A stretch of DNA of 64,000 bases from Calditrichia bacterium (GTDB lineage: Bacteria; Calditrichota; Calditrichia; JAJRVZ01), in the NCBI GenBank assembly GCA_963777955.1, contig CAVZSQ010000022.1, positions 1-64,000 on the forward strand, read 5' to 3'. Shown in pieces: positions 39,852-48,145 of this stretch. The notes under the pieces are model-generated. The model was not told where the DNA came from. It searched no databases and saw nothing but the letters and a program-made list of their open reading frames with translations. Numbering within the stretch: the stretch's first letter is position 1; each line of letters starts with the position of its first letter. The translations under genes and the position numbers were made by a program.

Positions 39852-41958
39852 GTGACCCACGGACACCTGCTCTCGCCCGGCTCGATCGGGCCCATGCCGC
39901 TGCGCAACCGCATCGTCATGCCGGCCATGGACCAGAACACCTGCGACGAGGGCGAGATCACCGACCTCACCGTGGCCCACTACGAGGCGCGGGCGAAGGG
40001 CGGCGTCGGGCTGCTCATCCTCGAGACCTCGGCCGTGGCCTGGCCGGTCGGCGCCACGTCGATCCACCAGCCGGCGCTCTCCGACGACCGGTTCGTGCCC
40101 GGGCTCGAGCGCCTGGGCCGGGCGGTGCACAAGCACGGGGCGAAGATGGTCGTGCAGGTCTGCCACCACGGCAAGACCGCCGGCGTCGACGCCATGCAGG
40201 ACCGCGACCAGCTCGTGCCCTCGATGCCGATGCCCCACGAGGACGTCGACATCAGCGCCCTCACCATGGACGAGCTGATGAAGATGGCCGCCCTCACCGG
40301 CGGCAAGCGGGCCACCCAGCGCGAGGCCACGGCCGACGACCTGGCGTGGGTCGTCGACCAGTTCGCCGACGCTGCCGCCCGGGTGCAGGCCGCCGGGCTC
40401 GACGGGGTCGAGGTGCACGCCGCCCACGGCTACCTCATCTCCACCTTCCTCTCGCCGCGCTTCAACACCCGCACCGACGAGTGGGGCGGATCGGTCGAGA
40501 ACCGGGCCCGGCTGATGACCGACGTGATCCGGGCCATCCGCACCCGCTGCGGCGACGGGTTCGCGGTGATCGTGCGCATCGACGGCCGCGAGTACGCCGA
40601 GGGCGGGGTCACCCCGGAGCTGGCCGCCGAGCACGCGGTGCTGGCCCAGGCCGCCGGCGCCCACGCCGTGCACGTGTCGGCCAGCGCGCCCAACGCCCTC
40701 GGCGTGGGCTTCACCGACGGTCCGCTGCCGTGGCAGGCCGACCAGTACGTCGGGCTGGCGGCGCTGCGTGAAGCAGTCGATCGCGGTGCCGGTGATCGGT
40801 GTCGGCCGGATCATGCCCGACGCCGCCGAGCGCCACATCGCCAACGGCGAGCTCGACTTCGTGTCGATGGGCCGCCAGCTGCTCGCCGACCCCGAGATCC
40901 CCTCGAAGCTGCTCGCCGGCCGGGCCGACCACGTCCGCACCTGCATCAACTGCTTCGTGTGCGTCGCCCAGAACTTCTGGGACGGCGCTCCGGTGTGCGC
41001 GGTCAACGCCGAGCTCGGCCACTACGACGAGGGCCCGATCGTGCCGGCCGAGGTGCGCCGCACCGTCGCCGTGGTCGGGGGTGGGCCCGGCGGCATGGAG
41101 GCGGCCCGTGTCGCGGCGCTCCGCGGCCACCGGGTCACCCTGTTCGAGAAGGGCACCGAGCTCGGTGGCACCGCCCGCTTCTCGTCGCTCACCACGCCGA
41201 TGAACGCCGAGCTGGTGCGCTACCTCACCAACTCGATCCAGGACCTCGACGTCGAGGTCCTCACCGGCACCGAGGCCACCCCCGACGCCGTGAAGGCCGT
41301 CGGGGCCGAGGCCGTCGTGGTCGCCACCGGCGCCCGCCGCGACCGGCCCGACGTGCCCGGTGCCGACCTGCCCCACGTGCTCTCCGGCGACGACCTGCGG
41401 GGCATGCTGACCGGCGACGACCCGTCGGCGCTGAAGCGCCTGTCGCTCTACCGGCGCACCGTGGTCGCCGTCGGCCGCCGCACCGGGATGATGTCGAGCA
41501 TGGACCGGGTCCGGGGCCTCTCGAAGCGCTGGATGCCCATCGGCAAGAAGGTCGTGGTGATCGGCGGCGGGCTCGTCGGGCTCGAGCTGGCCGAGTTCCT
41601 GGCCGAGCGGGGCCGCAAGGTCACCGTGCTGGAGGCCGGCGACAAGCTCGGGGTCGAGATGGCCCACCCCCGTCGGGCCCGCGCCCTGTTCGAGGCCCGG
41701 GCCCACGGCGTCGAGCTCGTCACCGGGGCCGAGGTCTCGATGATCACCGCCGACCGGGTCGAGTACCGGGTCGGCGACCGCTCGCTCGCCAGCGACGCCG
41801 ACGCCGTCGTCCTGGCCAGCGGTGTGCACGCCGACCGGAGCACCGCCGATCGCATGGAGGCGGCCGGGTTCGAGGTCCACGTGGTGGGAGACGCCGGCGA
41901 GGTCGGCTACATCCAGGGCGCCGTGCGCAGCGGCCATCTCGTCGGTCGGGCCCTCTAG
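39852..41958 (+). CDS. NADH:flavin oxidoreductase (Old Yellow Enzyme + FAD/NAD domains; FadH-like), one frameshift near 40768
   Basis: LRNRIVMPAM, EVHAAHGYL..FLSP..N.RTDEWGGS.ENR, CINCFVC...C, VGGGPGG, IGGGLVG. Confidence 0.9.
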
Positions 41959-41998: not shown

Positions 41999-42580
41999 AT
42001 GGTGCTGGGTGGTCTCCTCGGGGTGGTCGCGGGGATCCTCGCGGTCGGGGGGCTGGCCAAGCTCCGCGGACCGGAGGCCACCGTCCCCATGCTCCGGGCC
42101 CTGGGCCTGCCCGCCTCGCCGATGCTCGCCCGTGCCCTCGGGCTGGTCGAGGTCGGCGTCGGCGTCGCCGCCTTCCTCGTCGGCGGATGGGCCCTCGCCG
42201 CCGCGGTGGCCGTGCTGTTCGTGATCTTCACCGTCGCCGTGCTGCGCCTGCGCTCCGGTGGCGAGGCCGTGTCGTGCGGGTGCTTCGGTCGCTCCTCGGC
42301 CCCGCCCACGATGATCCACGCCGTCGTCGACGGTGTGGCGGCGCTGGTCGCCGTCGCCGCCGCGGTGGCCGACGCCCCCGGCTTCCTCTCGATGCGGCCC
42401 GACCTGCCCGCCGCCGGAGTGCCCCAGCTGGGGCTCACCGTGCTCGCGGTGTGGCTCGGCGTCGCCCTGCTCACCGTGCTGCCGGAGGCGCTCGTCGCCG
42501 CCCGCCGGGTCCCCGCCACCGAGGCGCAGCGCGCCGCTCGTGCCCTGCGCACCTTCAGCCTGGAGTCGCCGCTCCCATGA
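41999..42580 (+). CDS. MauE/DoxX family redox membrane protein
   Basis: GLAKL TM, several TMs and VSCGCFG (MauE CGCxG motif). Confidence 0.82.
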   Translation: MVLGGLLGVVAGILAVGGLAKLRGPEATVPMLRALGLPASPMLARALGLVEVGVGVAAFLVGGWALAAAVAVLFVIFTVAVLRLRSGGEAVSCGCFGRSSAPPTMIHAVVDGVAALVAVAAAVADAPGFLSMRPDLPAAGVPQLGLTVLAVWLGVALLTVLPEALVAARRVPATEAQRAARALRTFSLESPLP

Positions 42581-44777
42581 GCCCCTCTGCTCAGCTCGCC
42601 GACAAGGTCTCGGGCCTCCTCGGCAGCCGGTTCAGCCGCCGTGGGTTCTTCGCCCGCACGGCCGTCGTCGGCTCCGCCGTCGCCGCCAACCCGCTGACCT
42701 ACGCCCTGACCCCCACCGACGCCTACGCCGCGGTCTGCAGCTGCAGCGGCTCGAACTGCGAGTGCGGCTCGATGTGCTGCGACGGCTACACCGAGTTCTG
42801 CTGCACCCTCACGCGGCAACAACCAGTGCCCCCCGGGCGTCGCTGCTCGGTGGCTGGTGGAAGGTCGACGGCTCGGGCTTCTGCAACGGCCCCCGCTACT
42901 ACATGGACTGCAACGCCCCCTGCAACGGGTGCGGCTGCGGCGGCGGCGGCATCTGCAGCGGCGGCGCGCTCGGGCACCAACTGCGGCTGCGGCCTCGGCG
43001 ACTGCAACAACCGCAAGGCCGGCTGCGTGAACTTCCGCTACGGCCAGTGCAACCAGCAGGTCGTCCTGCATCGGCCCGATCCTCTGCCGGGTGGTCACCT
43101 GCATCGCCCCGTGGGAGATCGACGGCACCTGCACGACCACCGCCCGCTACGACGCCACCACCGCCGACCCACGACCGGCCCTGCCTGCACGGTCGATCGG
43201 CGACGTCGAACACCGCGGTGGAGGACCAGCCGTCAACGGCGGTCCCGCCATCGGGTCACCGGCTGGGCGCATCGACTTCGACACCAACGCCTCGATCGAC
43301 GTCCGCGTCTACGTCGACGGCAACTCGCCACCACGGCCACTCGCCAACCGGTGCCCGGTCCGACGTCGCCATCGCCAACCCGGGTCAGGGGCCCGAACCA
43401 CGGGTTCGACGTCACCGTCCCGATCACCTCGGGCGCCCACAACGTCTGCGTGTATGGCTCAACGCCGGCCCGGTCGGCAACGGCAACCCCGCCTCGGCTG
43501 CCGCGACGGTCACCAGGTCGGAGCGCCGTTCGGCAACCTCGAGGGCCTCGACCGTCGGCACGGGCCGATCACCGTCCGGGGCTGGGCCGCTCGACCCGGA
43601 CACCACCGGCCCGGTGAGCGTCCACGTCTACGTCGACGGCAACTGGGCACGGCCAGGGCGTCGCCGACCAGCCCCGCCCCGACGTCGGCCAGGCCTTCCC
43701 CGCCCTCGGCCCGAACCACGGCTTCACCGTCACCGTGCCCCTCGCGGCCGGCGCCCACAACGTGTGCGTCTACGCCATCAACGTGGGCAACGGATCGGTC
43801 AACACCCAGATCGGCTGCGTCACGGTCATCGGGGCAACCCGTTCGGCTCGCTCGACGTGGCCACCGCCACCGCGGGCGGTGTCGACGTCAGCGGCTGGGC
43901 GATCGACCCCGACCAGCTCACCAGCCCCATCGACGTCCAGCTGCGCCTCGACGGCAACCCGGTCAGCACCGTCGCCGCGGGCGAGTCCCGGCCCGACGTC
44001 GGCTCCGTCTACCCGACGGCAGGGGCGAACCACGGCTTCTCCCGATCGTCCCCGCCACAGCCGGTGTGCACACGATCTCGGCGGTGGCGCTCAACGTCGG
44101 GCCCGGCACCAACCAGGTGCTCGCCACCCGCAGCGTCGAGGTGCGCTCGCGGCAGCCCGTTCGGGAACCTCGAGCGCACCTGGACCGGCCCGGACACCGT
44201 CCGGGTCCCGGGCTGGGTCCTCGACCCCGACAACACCGGCCCCATCCAGGTGCAGGTCGACGTCGACGGCGTGGTCGCCACCACCGCCACCGCCGATGTG
44301 TCCCGGCCGCGACGTGGCCGCCGTGTACCCGGGCTACGGCCCCGTGCACGGCTTCCAGGTCGACGTGCCGGCCACCAACGGCCTGCGCCTCGTGCGGGTC
44401 GTGGCCCTCAACGTGGGCGCCGGCTCGCCGGTGGTGCTCGGCGTGCCGCAGCTGCAGGTGGGCGGCAACCCGTTCGGCAACTTCGAGGACGTCGTGGTCG
44501 CCTACGGCCGGGTCGCCGTCGCCGGCTGGGCCATCGACCCCGACACCTCCGATCCCATCGACGTCCACGTGTACATCGACGGCAGGCTGGCCCTCGTCGG
44601 CACCGCCAACCAGTCCCGTCCCGACGTGGCCGAGGCCTTCCCGCTGTACGGCCCGAACCACGGCTTCAGCATCTCGACCCCGATCGCCCGCGGCCGCCAC
44701 GAGGTCTGCGTTTCGCCATCGACCAGGGCCCGGGCACCGAGAACGTGCTGATCGGCTGCCGGACGGTGACCGCATGA
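42577..44777 (+). CDS. Tat-exported Cys-rich protein: MauA/amine dehydrogenase light chain-like N-domain + five ~100-aa repeats (frameshifted)
   Basis: FSRRGFF Tat motif, AYA cleavage site, ~25 Cys, CCDGYTEFCC...QCPPGSLLGGWWK...YYMDC, and repeats with GW.DPD...V.VDG...RPDV...HGF. ATGA overlaps on both sides. Confidence 0.75.
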
Positions 44778-45652
44778 CCGTCCTCGTCGTGCTGCTCGCC
44801 CTCGTGGTGGCGCTGCTCGCCGTGCTGGTCATCGGCCTGCTGCGCAGCCACGCCGAGATCCTGCGCCGGCTCCACGAGCTGGGCGCGGGGATCTACGACG
44901 ACGACGAGGGCACCACCGTCACGTCGCCGACGTCGACCACCGGTGGCGTGCGCTCGCCCGTCGAGCTGCGCACCCGGCCGGGCGTGCCCGAGCCCCGCAG
45001 CGCCGAGGGCCTGGTGGCCACCGACGCCCACGACATCGCCGGGGTGACCCCGACCGGCTCGGCCACCATGGCCGGGGTGGTGGGCACCGGGCACACGACC
45101 CTGCTGGCGTTCCTGTCGAGCGGCTGTGGCACCTGCGCCGACTTCTGGCGGGCGTTCGGCGACGGCGAGGGCACCCGCCTGCCGGGCCGCGACACCCGCC
45201 TGGTGATCGTCACCAAGGGCACCGAGGCCGAGAGCAGCTCGGCGGTCGCCCTGCTGGCCCCCGCCGGGGTCACCACGATCATGTCGACCGAGGCCTACGA
45301 CCAGTACTCGGTGCCGGCCAACCCGTACTTCATCCTCGTCGACGGGCCCACGGGCCGGGTGCTCGGCGAGGGGGCCGCCGCGTCCTGGAGCCAGGTCGCC
45401 ACCCTGCTCGGCCAGGCGGCCGCCGACGCCGGCCTCGCCCTCGACGGCTCGCCGCTCACCCGCTCGGCCCCGGCCGGGCGCATGTCCGGCCCCGATCGGG
45501 CGGCCCGCGCCGACGACGACCTCCTGGCCGCCGGCATCGGCCCCGGCCACCCGAGCCTCTACCCCGACCAGCTGGTGGGTGGCGACGACGCCGCCCTGCC
45601 ACAGACCGACCCCGTCCCCGGCGGCCCCGCCGACCCGGGCCGGGCGAGCTGA
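44774..45652 (+). CDS. MauD/TlpA-like membrane-anchored thioredoxin-fold protein
   Basis: N-terminal TM ending GLLRSHAEILRRLHELG; LLAFLSSGCGTC (CxxC); YSVPANPYFILVD (cis-Pro region). Confidence 0.8.
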   Translation: MTVLVVLLALVVALLAVLVIGLLRSHAEILRRLHELGAGIYDDDEGTTVTSPTSTTGGVRSPVELRTRPGVPEPRSAEGLVATDAHDIAGVTPTGSATMAGVVGTGHTTLLAFLSSGCGTCADFWRAFGDGEGTRLPGRDTRLVIVTKGTEAESSSAVALLAPAGVTTIMSTEAYDQYSVPANPYFILVDGPTGRVLGEGAAASWSQVATLLGQAAADAGLALDGSPLTRSAPAGRMSGPDRAARADDDLLAAGIGPGHPSLYPDQLVGGDDAALPQTDPVPGGPADPGRAS

Positions 45653-45660
45653 GGACGACC

Positions 45661-46135
45661 ATGGCCACGCTTGAAGGCCCACGGGATCGGCGTCGCCCCG
45701 CCGGCCGGCTGGGACGCCCAGATCTACTCCCGCAGCGCCGATCCCCGGATCATGACGCCGCAGGGTGTCAGCGAGATCGTGCCGCCGATCGCCCACGTCG
45801 CCAACTTCGCCCTGCCGCCCGTCCGCGGCGACTTCGGCGGTGGCGCGGTGGAGCTGATGGAATCGGGCGCGGTGTTCATCGCGCTGCTCGAGCACGACGC
45901 CGCCGAGGCCGACACCGCGCTGTTCGTGGGCAAGAGCATCCCGTGGCCGCTGAAGGCCGACGACTTCGACCCCAACAACCTGCAGCGTGGCATCGGCGGG
46001 CAGGCCGGGTGCCAGCGGTTCTTCCTCGTGAACGGCCGGCCGTTCTGCCTCTACGTCGTGATCGGCAGCCACCGCCTCCGGCACGTGCTCGTCCGCGAGG
46101 TCAACGCCGCGCTGGCGGCCGTCACCTTCGACTGA
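45661..46135 (+). CDS. Hypothetical protein, last gene of the Mau-like operon (apparent +1 indel near the start)
   Basis: RBS GAGGA 8 bp after the previous stop; PPAGWDAQI...HVANFALPPVRGDFGGGAVE...GQAGCQRFF..NGRPFCLYVVIGS. Confidence 0.7.
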
Positions 46136-46224: not shown

Positions 46225-48145
46225 ATGGGCACCTTCGACGAGGTCTACGACCGGAGCATCGCCGACCCGGAGGGGTTCTGGGGCGAGGCCGCCACGGCCA
46301 TCCACTGGGACACGACCGCCGGCCACGGTGCTCGACGCGAGCAACCCGCCCTTCTACCGGTGGTTCCCGGACGGCGAGCTCAACACCTGCTTCAACGCCC
46401 TCGACCGCGGTCGACGGCGGGACGGCGTCGACGAGCTGCGGGCGACCAGGCCGGCGCTGATCTACGACACCCCGGTCACCGGCACGGTGCACGACCTACA
46501 CCTACCGCGAGCTGCGCGACGAGTCGCCCGCTTCGCCGGCGCGCTGCGCGGCGCTCGGCGTCGGCAAGGGCGACCGCGTCGTCATCTACATGCCGATGGT
46601 GCCCGAGGCCGTCATCGCGATGCTGGCCTGCGCCCGGCTCGGCGCCGTGCACTCGGTGGTGTTCGGCGGCTTCGCCGCCCACGAGCTCGCCGTCCGCATC
46701 GACGACGCCCGGCCCACGGTCGTCGTCTCGGCGTCGCTGCGGCATCGAGGGCACGCAGGTCGTCGAGTACAAGCCGATGCTCGACCGGCGCCTCGACCTC
46801 GCCGAGCACGAGCCCGCCGAGCACTGCGTCATCCTGCAGCGCCCGCAGGTCGCGGCCACGCTGGTCGCGGGCCGCGACCTCGACTGGGCCGAGGCCGTGG
46901 CGGCCGCCGAGCCCGTCGACCCGTGCGTCCCGGTCGCGGCCACCGACCCGCTCTACGTGCTCTACACCTCGGGCACCACCGGCAAGCCCAAGGGCGTCGT
47001 CCGCGACAACGGCGGCCACGCCGTCGCGCTGCGCTGGACCATGCCGCAACATCTACGACATCGCAGCCCGGCGACGTGTTCTGGGCCGCCTCCGACGTCG
47101 GCTGGGTCGTCGGCCACTCCTACATCGTCTACGCGCCCGCTGCTGCTCGGGCGCGACGACCGTGCTCTACGAGGGCAAGCCGGTCGGCACGCCCGACGCC
47201 GGGCGCGTTCTGGCGGGTGGCCGCCGAGCACGGGGTGAAGGTGCTGTTCACCGCGCCGACCGCGTTCCGGGCGATCAAGAAGGAGGACCCCGAGGGCGCC
47301 CACCTCGCCGGCCACGACCTGTCGGCGCTGCAGACGCTGTTCCTGGCCGGCGAGCGACTCGACCCCGACACCTACCACTGGGCCGTCGACCAGCTCGGCA
47401 TCCCGGTGATCGACCACTGGTGGCAGACCGAGACCGGCTGGCCGATCGCCGCCAACCTGCATGGGCATCGAGCGCGCTGCCGGTCAAGCCGGGCTCGCCG
47501 ACCGTGCCGGTGCCCGGCTACGACGTGCGAGATCCTCGACGCGACGGGGCGCCGAGGTGCGAGCCGCGGCGACGAGGGCTCGATCGTGCATCAGGCTGCC
47601 GCTGCCGCCCGGCACGCTGCCGACGCTGTGGGGCGACGACGACCGCTACGTCGCGTCGTACCTGTCGACGCTTCGCCGGCTACTACCTCACCGGCGACGG
47701 CGGCTACGTCGACGACGACGGCTACCTGTTCGTGATGGGCCGCACCGACGACGTCATCAACGTCGCCGGGCACCGGCTGTCGACCGGGGCGATGGAGGCG
47801 GTGCTCGCCACCCATCCCGCCGTCGCCGAGTGCGCGGTGATCGGCGTCGCCGACGAGCTCAAGGGCCAGGTGCCGCGCGGGCTTCGTCGTGCTCAAGGCC
47901 GGCGTCGACGTCGAGCCGACGGGCTCGCAGGCCGAGCTGGTGCCGATGGTGCGCGACGAGATCGGCGCGGTGGCGTCGCTTCAAGCGGGTCGACGTCGTG
48001 GCCGCGCCTGCCGAAGACCCGCTCGGGCAAGATCCTGCGCAAGACCATGCGCGGCATCGCCGACGGCCGCGACGAGCCGGTGCCGTCGACCATCGAGGAC
48101 CCCGCCGTGCTCGACGAGATCGGCGACGCCCTCGGCCGCCCCTGA
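46225..48145 (+). CDS. prpE: Propionyl-/acetyl-CoA synthetase (multiple frameshifts)
   Basis: WFPDGELNTCFNALDR, YTSGTTGKPKGVVRD, DHWWQTETGW, GRTDDVINVAGHRLSTG, LPKTRSGKILR. Confidence 0.88.

Follow-up and report, generated by a model that had tools for sequence, protein, structure and literature searches.

What might a set of amine dehydrogenase maturation genes be doing at a locus that contains neither mauB nor mauG? This question is raised by four adjacent genes in a 64,000-nucleotide stretch of DNA (the window) from the start of a contig (C22, GenBank CAVZSQ010000022.1) deposited as part of a Calditrichia bacterium genome (GCA_963777955.1). We find that these genes belong to a module of five: mauE, gene 2, a mauD-like gene, a mauF-like gene and gene 4. 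This module works like the MauFED-A maturation segment of methylamine dehydrogenase (MADH) but is not a tryptophan tryptophylquinone (TTQ) amine dehydrogenase. In many uncultured Acidimicrobiia it appears to export and fold a distant, very cysteine-rich relative of the light chain MauA, hinting at an undescribed surface enzyme.

As an earlier reading of the letters alone (the sequence-only reading) had described, the four genes are co-oriented on the plus strand, with ATGA overlaps at 42577–42580 and 44774–44777 and an 8-bp gap before the last gene. Gene 1 (41999–42580, 193 aa) matches PF07291 above the cut-off (E 2e-15) and carries the CXC motif as Cys-Gly-Cys at 42275–42283, which bears out its assignment as a MauE-family membrane thiol oxidase. 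According to the accessible text of a recent preprint, MauE of other phyla is a DsbB-like oxidase that replaces DsbB by way of the CXC motif (bioRxiv 10.64898/2026.03.05.709764). Gene 2 (42577–44777) codes for a leader, a head domain and a tail. Gene 3 spans 44774–45652 and gene 4 spans 45661–46135.

The high-GC end of the contig that carries these genes is foreign to the deposited genome, and tests for missing partners were therefore carried out on relatives. Among 151 Acidimicrobiia genomes, most of them incomplete metagenome-assembled genomes (MAGs), the gene 2 head occurs in 48 and gene 4 in 48, with 47 common to both. Co-occurrence of the four genes across this class, proposed as a check in the sequence-only reading, is thus near-perfect. 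The MauD-like gene 3 family was detected in 52 genomes, including 47 of the 48 head carriers (three of the extra matches are weak), and a MauF-like gene in 49, again including 47 of 48 carriers. The head is present as a single copy in 47 of the 48. Searches that started from gene 4 gave the same picture. Two protein searches returned 305 and 838 relatives, and the best 80 of 221 confirmed genomic matches were used as loci. Among the 55 of these with at least 5 kb of upstream sequence, genes 1 and 3 are present in all 55, the head in 50 and the mauF-like gene in 33; where genomes had no head near gene 4, the head was found elsewhere in both of the two tested. The idea of a dedicated disulfide-maturation system with one exported client is supported, and a fifth, mauF-like gene also belongs to it. 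In the phylum, the head was found in 36 of 401 genomes (two matches weak, one unpublished). Modules also appear under Acidobacteriota or Gammaproteobacteria labels (L024, L028, L029, L038, L046 and L073, the last a short contig without a head). Since the five heads with an Acidobacteriota label fall within the Acidimicrobiia sequences in a quick tree of 85, these records seem to be mislabelled rather than products of transfer.

Could this nevertheless be an ordinary TTQ amine dehydrogenase with mauB and mauG located elsewhere? The joint presence of MauE, MauD, MauF and a MauA-like chain would suit this explanation. With MauB (PF06433) we obtained no match in 151 genomes, where the positive control worked, although a remote propeller could be missed in MAGs. 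The MauG family (PF03150) is found in four of the 151 genomes and in only one of the 48 head carriers, where the match is partial, and MauA itself (PF02975) is not found above the cut-off in any of them. The absence of a mauB/mauG partner set, noted before for the window, therefore extends to the class. Six plus two weak PF02975 matches were discarded, because those among the matches listed were chance wrong-frame hits or unrelated genes. A tblastn search (E 0.05) of the high-GC 77 kb gave no match to MauA, B, D, E, F, G, J or amicyanin, but is insensitive, as it also misses genes 1 and 3. The lone MauG-like match in the deposited genome lies on a 44%-GC contig and is uninformative, since the bin represents another organism. 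Together with the lack of a second Trp in the head, these counts largely refute an ordinary TTQ enzyme, which we consider scarcely tenable.

We then asked what the client of this system may be. Gene 2 was analysed by way of its intact orthologue on an Acidimicrobiales chromosome (L003), because the copy in the window is frameshifted by sequencing error. The sequence-only reading had taken the client for a different and much larger substrate. This description is to be replaced: the protein appears to have a head of about 155 aa, remotely related to MauA in its fold, to which a swappable tail is fused. The leader (42577–42729; RR at 42637–42642; cleavage site placed by inference) is a twin-arginine translocation (Tat) leader with an N-terminal extension of the MauA type. 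Its profile matches MauA/AauA leaders at 95% with a score of 40, compared to 26 for a generic Tat control built from only eight leaders, which suggests that gene 2 is exported by Tat. The head (42724–43192) is predicted with confidence (156 aa, predicted local distance difference test (pLDDT) 90.9). When its model was compared to 48,161 chains, Z 2 was reached only by two TTQ light chains (Z 2.4, root-mean-square deviation (rmsd) 3.3, 70 residues aligned; Z 2.1, rmsd 4.2, 80 aligned). In a second fold comparison 6 of 239 chains reached Z 2, all from aromatic amine dehydrogenase (AADH) or MADH light chains, and Foldseek ranked the AADH light chain first. A profile comparison with 12 MauA/AauA-type sequences gave 94% with the leader included, and 8% and 32% with the mature part. 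The 32% run scored 27.8, against no more than 19.2 in 40 column shuffles. Atlas neighbours of the head carry PF02975 (13–14% of members), and the third match is an AADH light-chain cluster (0.96); the mature head alone gave no usable Atlas match. As gene context adds to this weak fold and profile evidence, we judge remote homology of the head to MauA likely.

This alignment places Trp45 of the head (42858–42860) on MADH Trp57 and Asp61 (42906–42908) on Asp76, and both residues are invariant in 165 of 165 heads. We take Asp76 to be the aspartate adjacent to the quinone-forming Trp57, and Asp32 to be the second active-site aspartate of MADH. The accessible part of one review describes TTQ as a Trp57–Trp108 cross-link formed by MauG (PMC11951088). 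With no Trp108 partner and no MauG, the head, as judged from its sequence, cannot form TTQ. Another source, in the text available, regards the first Trp hydroxylation as probably autocatalytic and involving a nearby Asp, and names GoxA as an exception (PMC7876137). Therefore, a modified Trp in the head is still conceivable. The head contains 26 Cys in the intact orthologue and 16–28 across relatives. Of 165 distinct heads, 162 have an even number, and several pairs are gained or lost jointly, which argues that all Cys are engaged in disulfides and disfavours an intramolecular cysteine tryptophylquinone (CTQ). The disulfides predicted from covariation are 18–90, 88–102, 86–101, 27–154 and 66–116. 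A candidate Cys for a CTQ exists in gene 4 (Cys126, at the predicted interface described below). In-frame stops in some head homologues were considered as selenocysteine codons and rejected, since they are true stop codons in the three parsed and listed loci. Of the quinocofactor proposed earlier, the TTQ part thus falls and an intramolecular CTQ is disfavoured, while a modified Trp survives. Rather than TTQ chemistry, the head would most likely carry out redox chemistry with a Trp that either is unmodified or bears a single hydroxylation.

The tail (43193–44777) consists of five repeats of about 105 aa that match no Pfam or NCBIfam family and would form beta-sandwiches with a role at the wall or surface. 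Relatives carry SLH, LGFP, propeller, ricin or B-lectin tails, repeats like those of gene 2, or no tail, and the head stays constant. By motif-based labels on the quick tree of 85, tail type changes at least 17 times. From these types we infer that tails tie the protein to the wall or to glycans. The tail-less forms (about 205 aa, 53 of 165) and the unusually conserved leader positions also fit a pathway for peptides that are made on the ribosome and modified after translation (RiPPs), with gene 2 as the precursor and a leader that recruits MauE and MauD as tailoring enzymes. Precedent exists as a proposal, since the decRiPPter paper, in its accessible text, notes orphan mauE/mauD clusters in Streptomyces (PMC7794033). 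We hold this to be very unlikely: the head is a well-predicted 156-residue fold, anchors of 200–500 aa are fused to it, and among the neighbours listed no protease or modifying enzyme is conserved nearby.

Gene 4 (157 aa; one frameshift near 45670; residue numbering from 45671) folds well in prediction as a PsbP/Mog1/DcrB-like protein. The nearest folds (Z 4.4–6.1) include Tsi3, TplEi, DcrB and LpqN, and no similarity to MauJ was found. To model its complex with the leader and head we used custom alignments and near-cognate partners from two strains. The predicted complex scored 0.84, the best of three controls 0.00. The mark applied here was reached with 116 of 157 solved complexes and with 2 of 215 mismatched pairs, figures that are only roughly valid for custom alignments. 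Between runs, at least 64% of contacts are the same, and the partner pLDDT is at least 89. Predicted contacts pair head Trp45 with Asp54 of gene 4 (45830–45832) and Gly108 with Cys126 (46046–46048), and further involve Tyr22 and residues 102–115 and 138–146. Of 270 relatives, 261 have Asp54 and 243 have Cys126. Searches of the PDB returned no complex of this kind. The matching region of MauA presumably borders the active site and touches the heavy chain, which is why we read gene 4 as a possible replacement of MauB. A gene described before only as unknown is hereby narrowed to a predicted binding partner of the mature head.

The same predicted interface could serve a protein that never leaves the cytoplasm: gene 4 might be a chaperone or cap that acts before or during export, or an inhibitor, with the head acting alone outside. 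This explanation, which we regard as unlikely, draws on the finding that 119 of 120 gene 4 relatives lack a signal-like stretch, on the immunity and binding proteins among the nearest folds (Tsi3, TplEi, DcrB, LpqN), and on the modelled position of gene 4 over a conserved face of the head. The predicted contacts speak against it, as they need a folded, disulfide-shaped head and not the leader. A leader-binding chaperone in particular was rejected, since the interface lies on the mature head and the leader makes no confident contacts.

Gene 3 (292 aa), a membrane-anchored protein, has the N-terminal hydrophobic helix and the thioredoxin CxxC motif (45125–45136) that the sequence-only reading had recognized, and both Cys are invariant in 37 aligned members. 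Its match to the MauD family TIGR02661 is sub-threshold (20 bits; cut-off 188.6), and PF02975 and TIGR02659 do not match the head in 59 members (Pfam) or in NCBIfam searches. A profile of gene 3 aligned with Paracoccus denitrificans MauD at 95.9% (E 5.6e-9), so that by sequence the protein is MauD-like only. Its charge bias is too weak for a call on topology. Past the MauD-aligned part, its C-terminus (45460–45570) holds a strongly conserved, family-specific 25-residue motif, possibly a docking site.

The MauF-like gene, which lies outside the window, matches P. denitrificans MauF at 97.6% (E 2.9e-12, 175 columns; PF13386). At the position of MauF Cys79, 48 of 59 MauF-like genes have an in-frame TGA and 11 have Cys (one unpublished row was dropped from this count). 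selB was found above the cut-off in five of five TGA genomes and in none of five Cys genomes. A 5-bp consensus hairpin follows the TGA in 59 TGA forms, and none is found in 13 Cys forms. An aligned TGA, selB and a hairpin are what is expected of a bacterial selenoprotein, and in relatives the MauF-like gene appears to be one. TGA forms, which gene callers shorten, mostly lie inside the operon just before gene 4. Most Cys forms, in contrast, are found in inverted orientation, downstream or at a great distance (loci compared: L007:9261–9944 and many others; L101, L104–L107). In the closest relative, which has no selB, the gene is of the Cys form and sits detached, 900 kb from the operon.

These components suggest the following mechanism. 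Gene 2 would leave the cell by Tat, and gene 4, because it has no signal peptide, may be exported as its Tat passenger. By analogy with known systems, 8–14 disulfides would be put in by the DsbB-like MauE through the MauD-like thioredoxin, and the MauF-like Cys/Sec membrane protein would probably contribute reduction or isomerisation. Once folded, the head would still have the fold of MauA together with the Trp57/Asp76 pair. Gene 4 would sit over the pocket where MauB would be, with its Asp54 beside the Trp and possibly substituting for the lost Asp32, and the tail would anchor the pair of proteins to the wall or to glycans. We give an even chance to the core of this model, a two-subunit surface protein with gene 4 in the place of the heavy chain and a retained Trp/Asp site. 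A bolder version, which we find improbable, is a new protein-derived-cofactor enzyme displayed on the cell wall in roughly one third of Acidimicrobiia, with a Trp that is hydroxylated or converted to a quinone without MauG and a PsbP-fold subunit that supplies an Asp and perhaps also a Cys through which the two subunits would be cross-linked.

A number of results weigh against a two-subunit, MauA-derived surface enzyme. The head has no match in Pfam, NCBIfam or PDB sequences, its fold match is weak (Z 2.1–2.6 overall; best Foldseek E 1.7, not significant), the mature-only profile comparison can fall to 8%, and the Atlas recognition value is below threshold. Trp44, Arg57, Arg123 and other residues are as invariant in the 165 heads as Trp45 and Asp61, so that invariance alone is no proof of chemistry. 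Two of the four key active-site residues are gone. The Asp32 equivalent is lost: Asp20 is present in 86 of 165 heads, and the aligned position 22 is Tyr, Trp or Phe in all 165. The equivalent of Trp108 is lost as well, since in either register (Gln109 or position 115) the residue is not Trp, and any Trp in 103–121 occurs in two of 165 heads. Among the matches listed over 100 loci, neither an oxidase nor an electron acceptor was found, nor any further neighbour conserved beyond lineage synteny. The predicted complex fits a permanent subunit and a chaperone alike, and the interface of gene 4 is no more conserved than the remaining protein (0.54 compared to 0.60). Finally, passage of a 26-Cys protein and a passenger through Tat before oxidation lacks an explanation.

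Some of these points suit a head that is not an enzyme, but a MauA-derived module for recognition or adhesion that is locked by disulfides, with Trp45 and Asp61 being structural or binding gene 4. The equivalents of Asp32 and Trp108 are lost, MauG, MauB and acceptors are absent, Cys counts are even in 162 of 165 heads, and the tails are of wall- or sugar-binding types. Yet a single-copy protein served by four dedicated helpers, one of them a putative selenoprotein, seems costly for a passive domain. A constant domain with changing anchors is the pattern of a catalytic domain, and this is what the head and its frequently switched tails present. On balance we consider a non-catalytic head rather unlikely.

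The origin of the DNA deserves separate comment. The first 77 kb of the contig have about 73% GC, and the contig remainder and nearly all other contigs about 45%. The whole window (1–64000, no strand assigned) is high-GC, indel-rich and Acidimicrobiales-like, and ends before the junction, which lies near contig position 77,000. L003 is 92% identical to the window across 4.4 kb, and the nearest relatives of the operon are Acidimicrobiales. The host of the operon is an organism other than the deposited 45%-GC genome. The same bin has a second high-GC contig end (C15 346,000–354,898, 62–74% GC), and both ends are probable chimeric joins to foreign, error-rich sequence. Other findings drawn from the window inherit this problem. 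Errors are patchy, with some genes clean and others riddled. Relative to L003, gene 2 has 32 frameshifting indels and is split over all three frames with no single open reading frame, gene 4 has one (about 45670), and genes 1 and 3 have none. The acyl-CoA synthetase downstream (46226–48145) has 31. A flavin oxidoreductase directly upstream (39852–41958; about 700 aa in L003) has one frameshift at about 40764; it adjoins the module in L003 and L004 and is not a conserved partner over 80 loci. At six places among the matches listed (42812, 42840, 42967–72, 43063, 43165 and 43832), short-read contigs of near relatives from four public runs, as opposed to reads of the source sample, carry the same corrections as L003. 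Because these contigs are independent, we can attribute the frameshifts of gene 2 to sequencing errors. The 32 frameshifts and the chimeric contig could otherwise be read as a pseudogene or an assembly artefact, a possibility that we consider negligible given the equally damaged synthetase next door, the copies in L003, L004 and others, which are intact and syntenic, and the shared corrections.

We found no published description of the module and no paper on gene 4 pairing with the head in a search that left out supplements and most subscription journals; the main text of PMC13188914 does not contain the term Mau. For MauD, MauE and MauF, which are poorly understood, this module adds a second client that is widespread, and for MauF a natural pair of Cys and Sec forms. 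It also appears to put the TTQ light-chain fold to use with neither MauG nor a heavy chain. Through the predicted complex, an orphan family becomes open to experiments on two proteins, with the residues of interest already named (Trp45, Asp61, Asp54 and Cys126). If the Trp is modified, a tryptophan cofactor would be made by a new route in a class that is abundant and mostly uncultured. In addition, a chimeric contig is flagged within a reference genome.

How does this module compare to known systems? A plasmid of Thermomicrobium roseum (NC_011961.1; L091:1717–10349) carries a short MauA-like gene followed by a gene of 400–450 aa, in tandem two or three times, then a fusion that ends in MauE, and MauD-like and MauF-like genes. 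The short proteins (the second copy is unannotated) have equivalents of Trp57, Asp76 and Trp108 and none of Asp32, and no MauG is annotated in the 14 kb examined. By sequence these genes seem to be a different MauA offshoot. The gene 4 model resembles Tsi3, TplEi, LpqN, MTC28 and PsbP (Z 5–6, rmsd 3.6–4.3, 105–121 residues aligned), but at 3–15% identity and without a lipoprotein or signal sequence; Z values in this range denote a common arrangement, and sharing a fold does not reveal function. The CTQ enzymes LodA, GoxA and QHNDH share with the head a Trp near a conserved Asp, for which the accessible texts assume self-hydroxylation without a modifying enzyme (PMC7876137, PMC11951088). They differ in having other folds and in requiring LodB, GoxB or QhpG, of which no conserved equivalent is found next to the module among the neighbours listed, and in the head no Cys is spare. 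General MauE proteins share the CXC-F-G motif, a thioredoxin-fold partner and occurrence without MADH, whereas MauE of the module is tied to one client and three more genes; the available preprint text mentions neither MauF nor Actinomycetota (10.64898/2026.03.05.709764).

The closest comparisons are with the amine dehydrogenases. AauA light chains (PDB 2agl, 2agy) are the best structural match to the head (Z 2.4–2.6, rmsd 3.1–3.3, about 70 residues aligned) and its nearest named Atlas cluster. Unlike AauA, the head lacks Asp32 and Trp108, and in the aau-type clusters examined the heavy chain and c-type cytochromes are encoded next to the light chain. Compared to the mauF-B-E-D-A-C-J-G cluster on plasmid 1 of P. 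denitrificans PD1222 (L090), the module has no MauB, MauG, amicyanin, MauJ, Trp108 or Asp32. Its head, unlike MauA, has 16–28 Cys, with pairs that, by covariation, would be extra or rewired, and carries fused tails; an additional PsbP-fold gene codes for its predicted partner. What the two systems have in common are homologues of MauE, MauD, MauF and MauA, a MauA-type Tat leader, the equivalents of Trp57 and Asp76, matches to most of the Cys positions of MauA, and the single motif Cys of MauF, kept as Cys or Sec.

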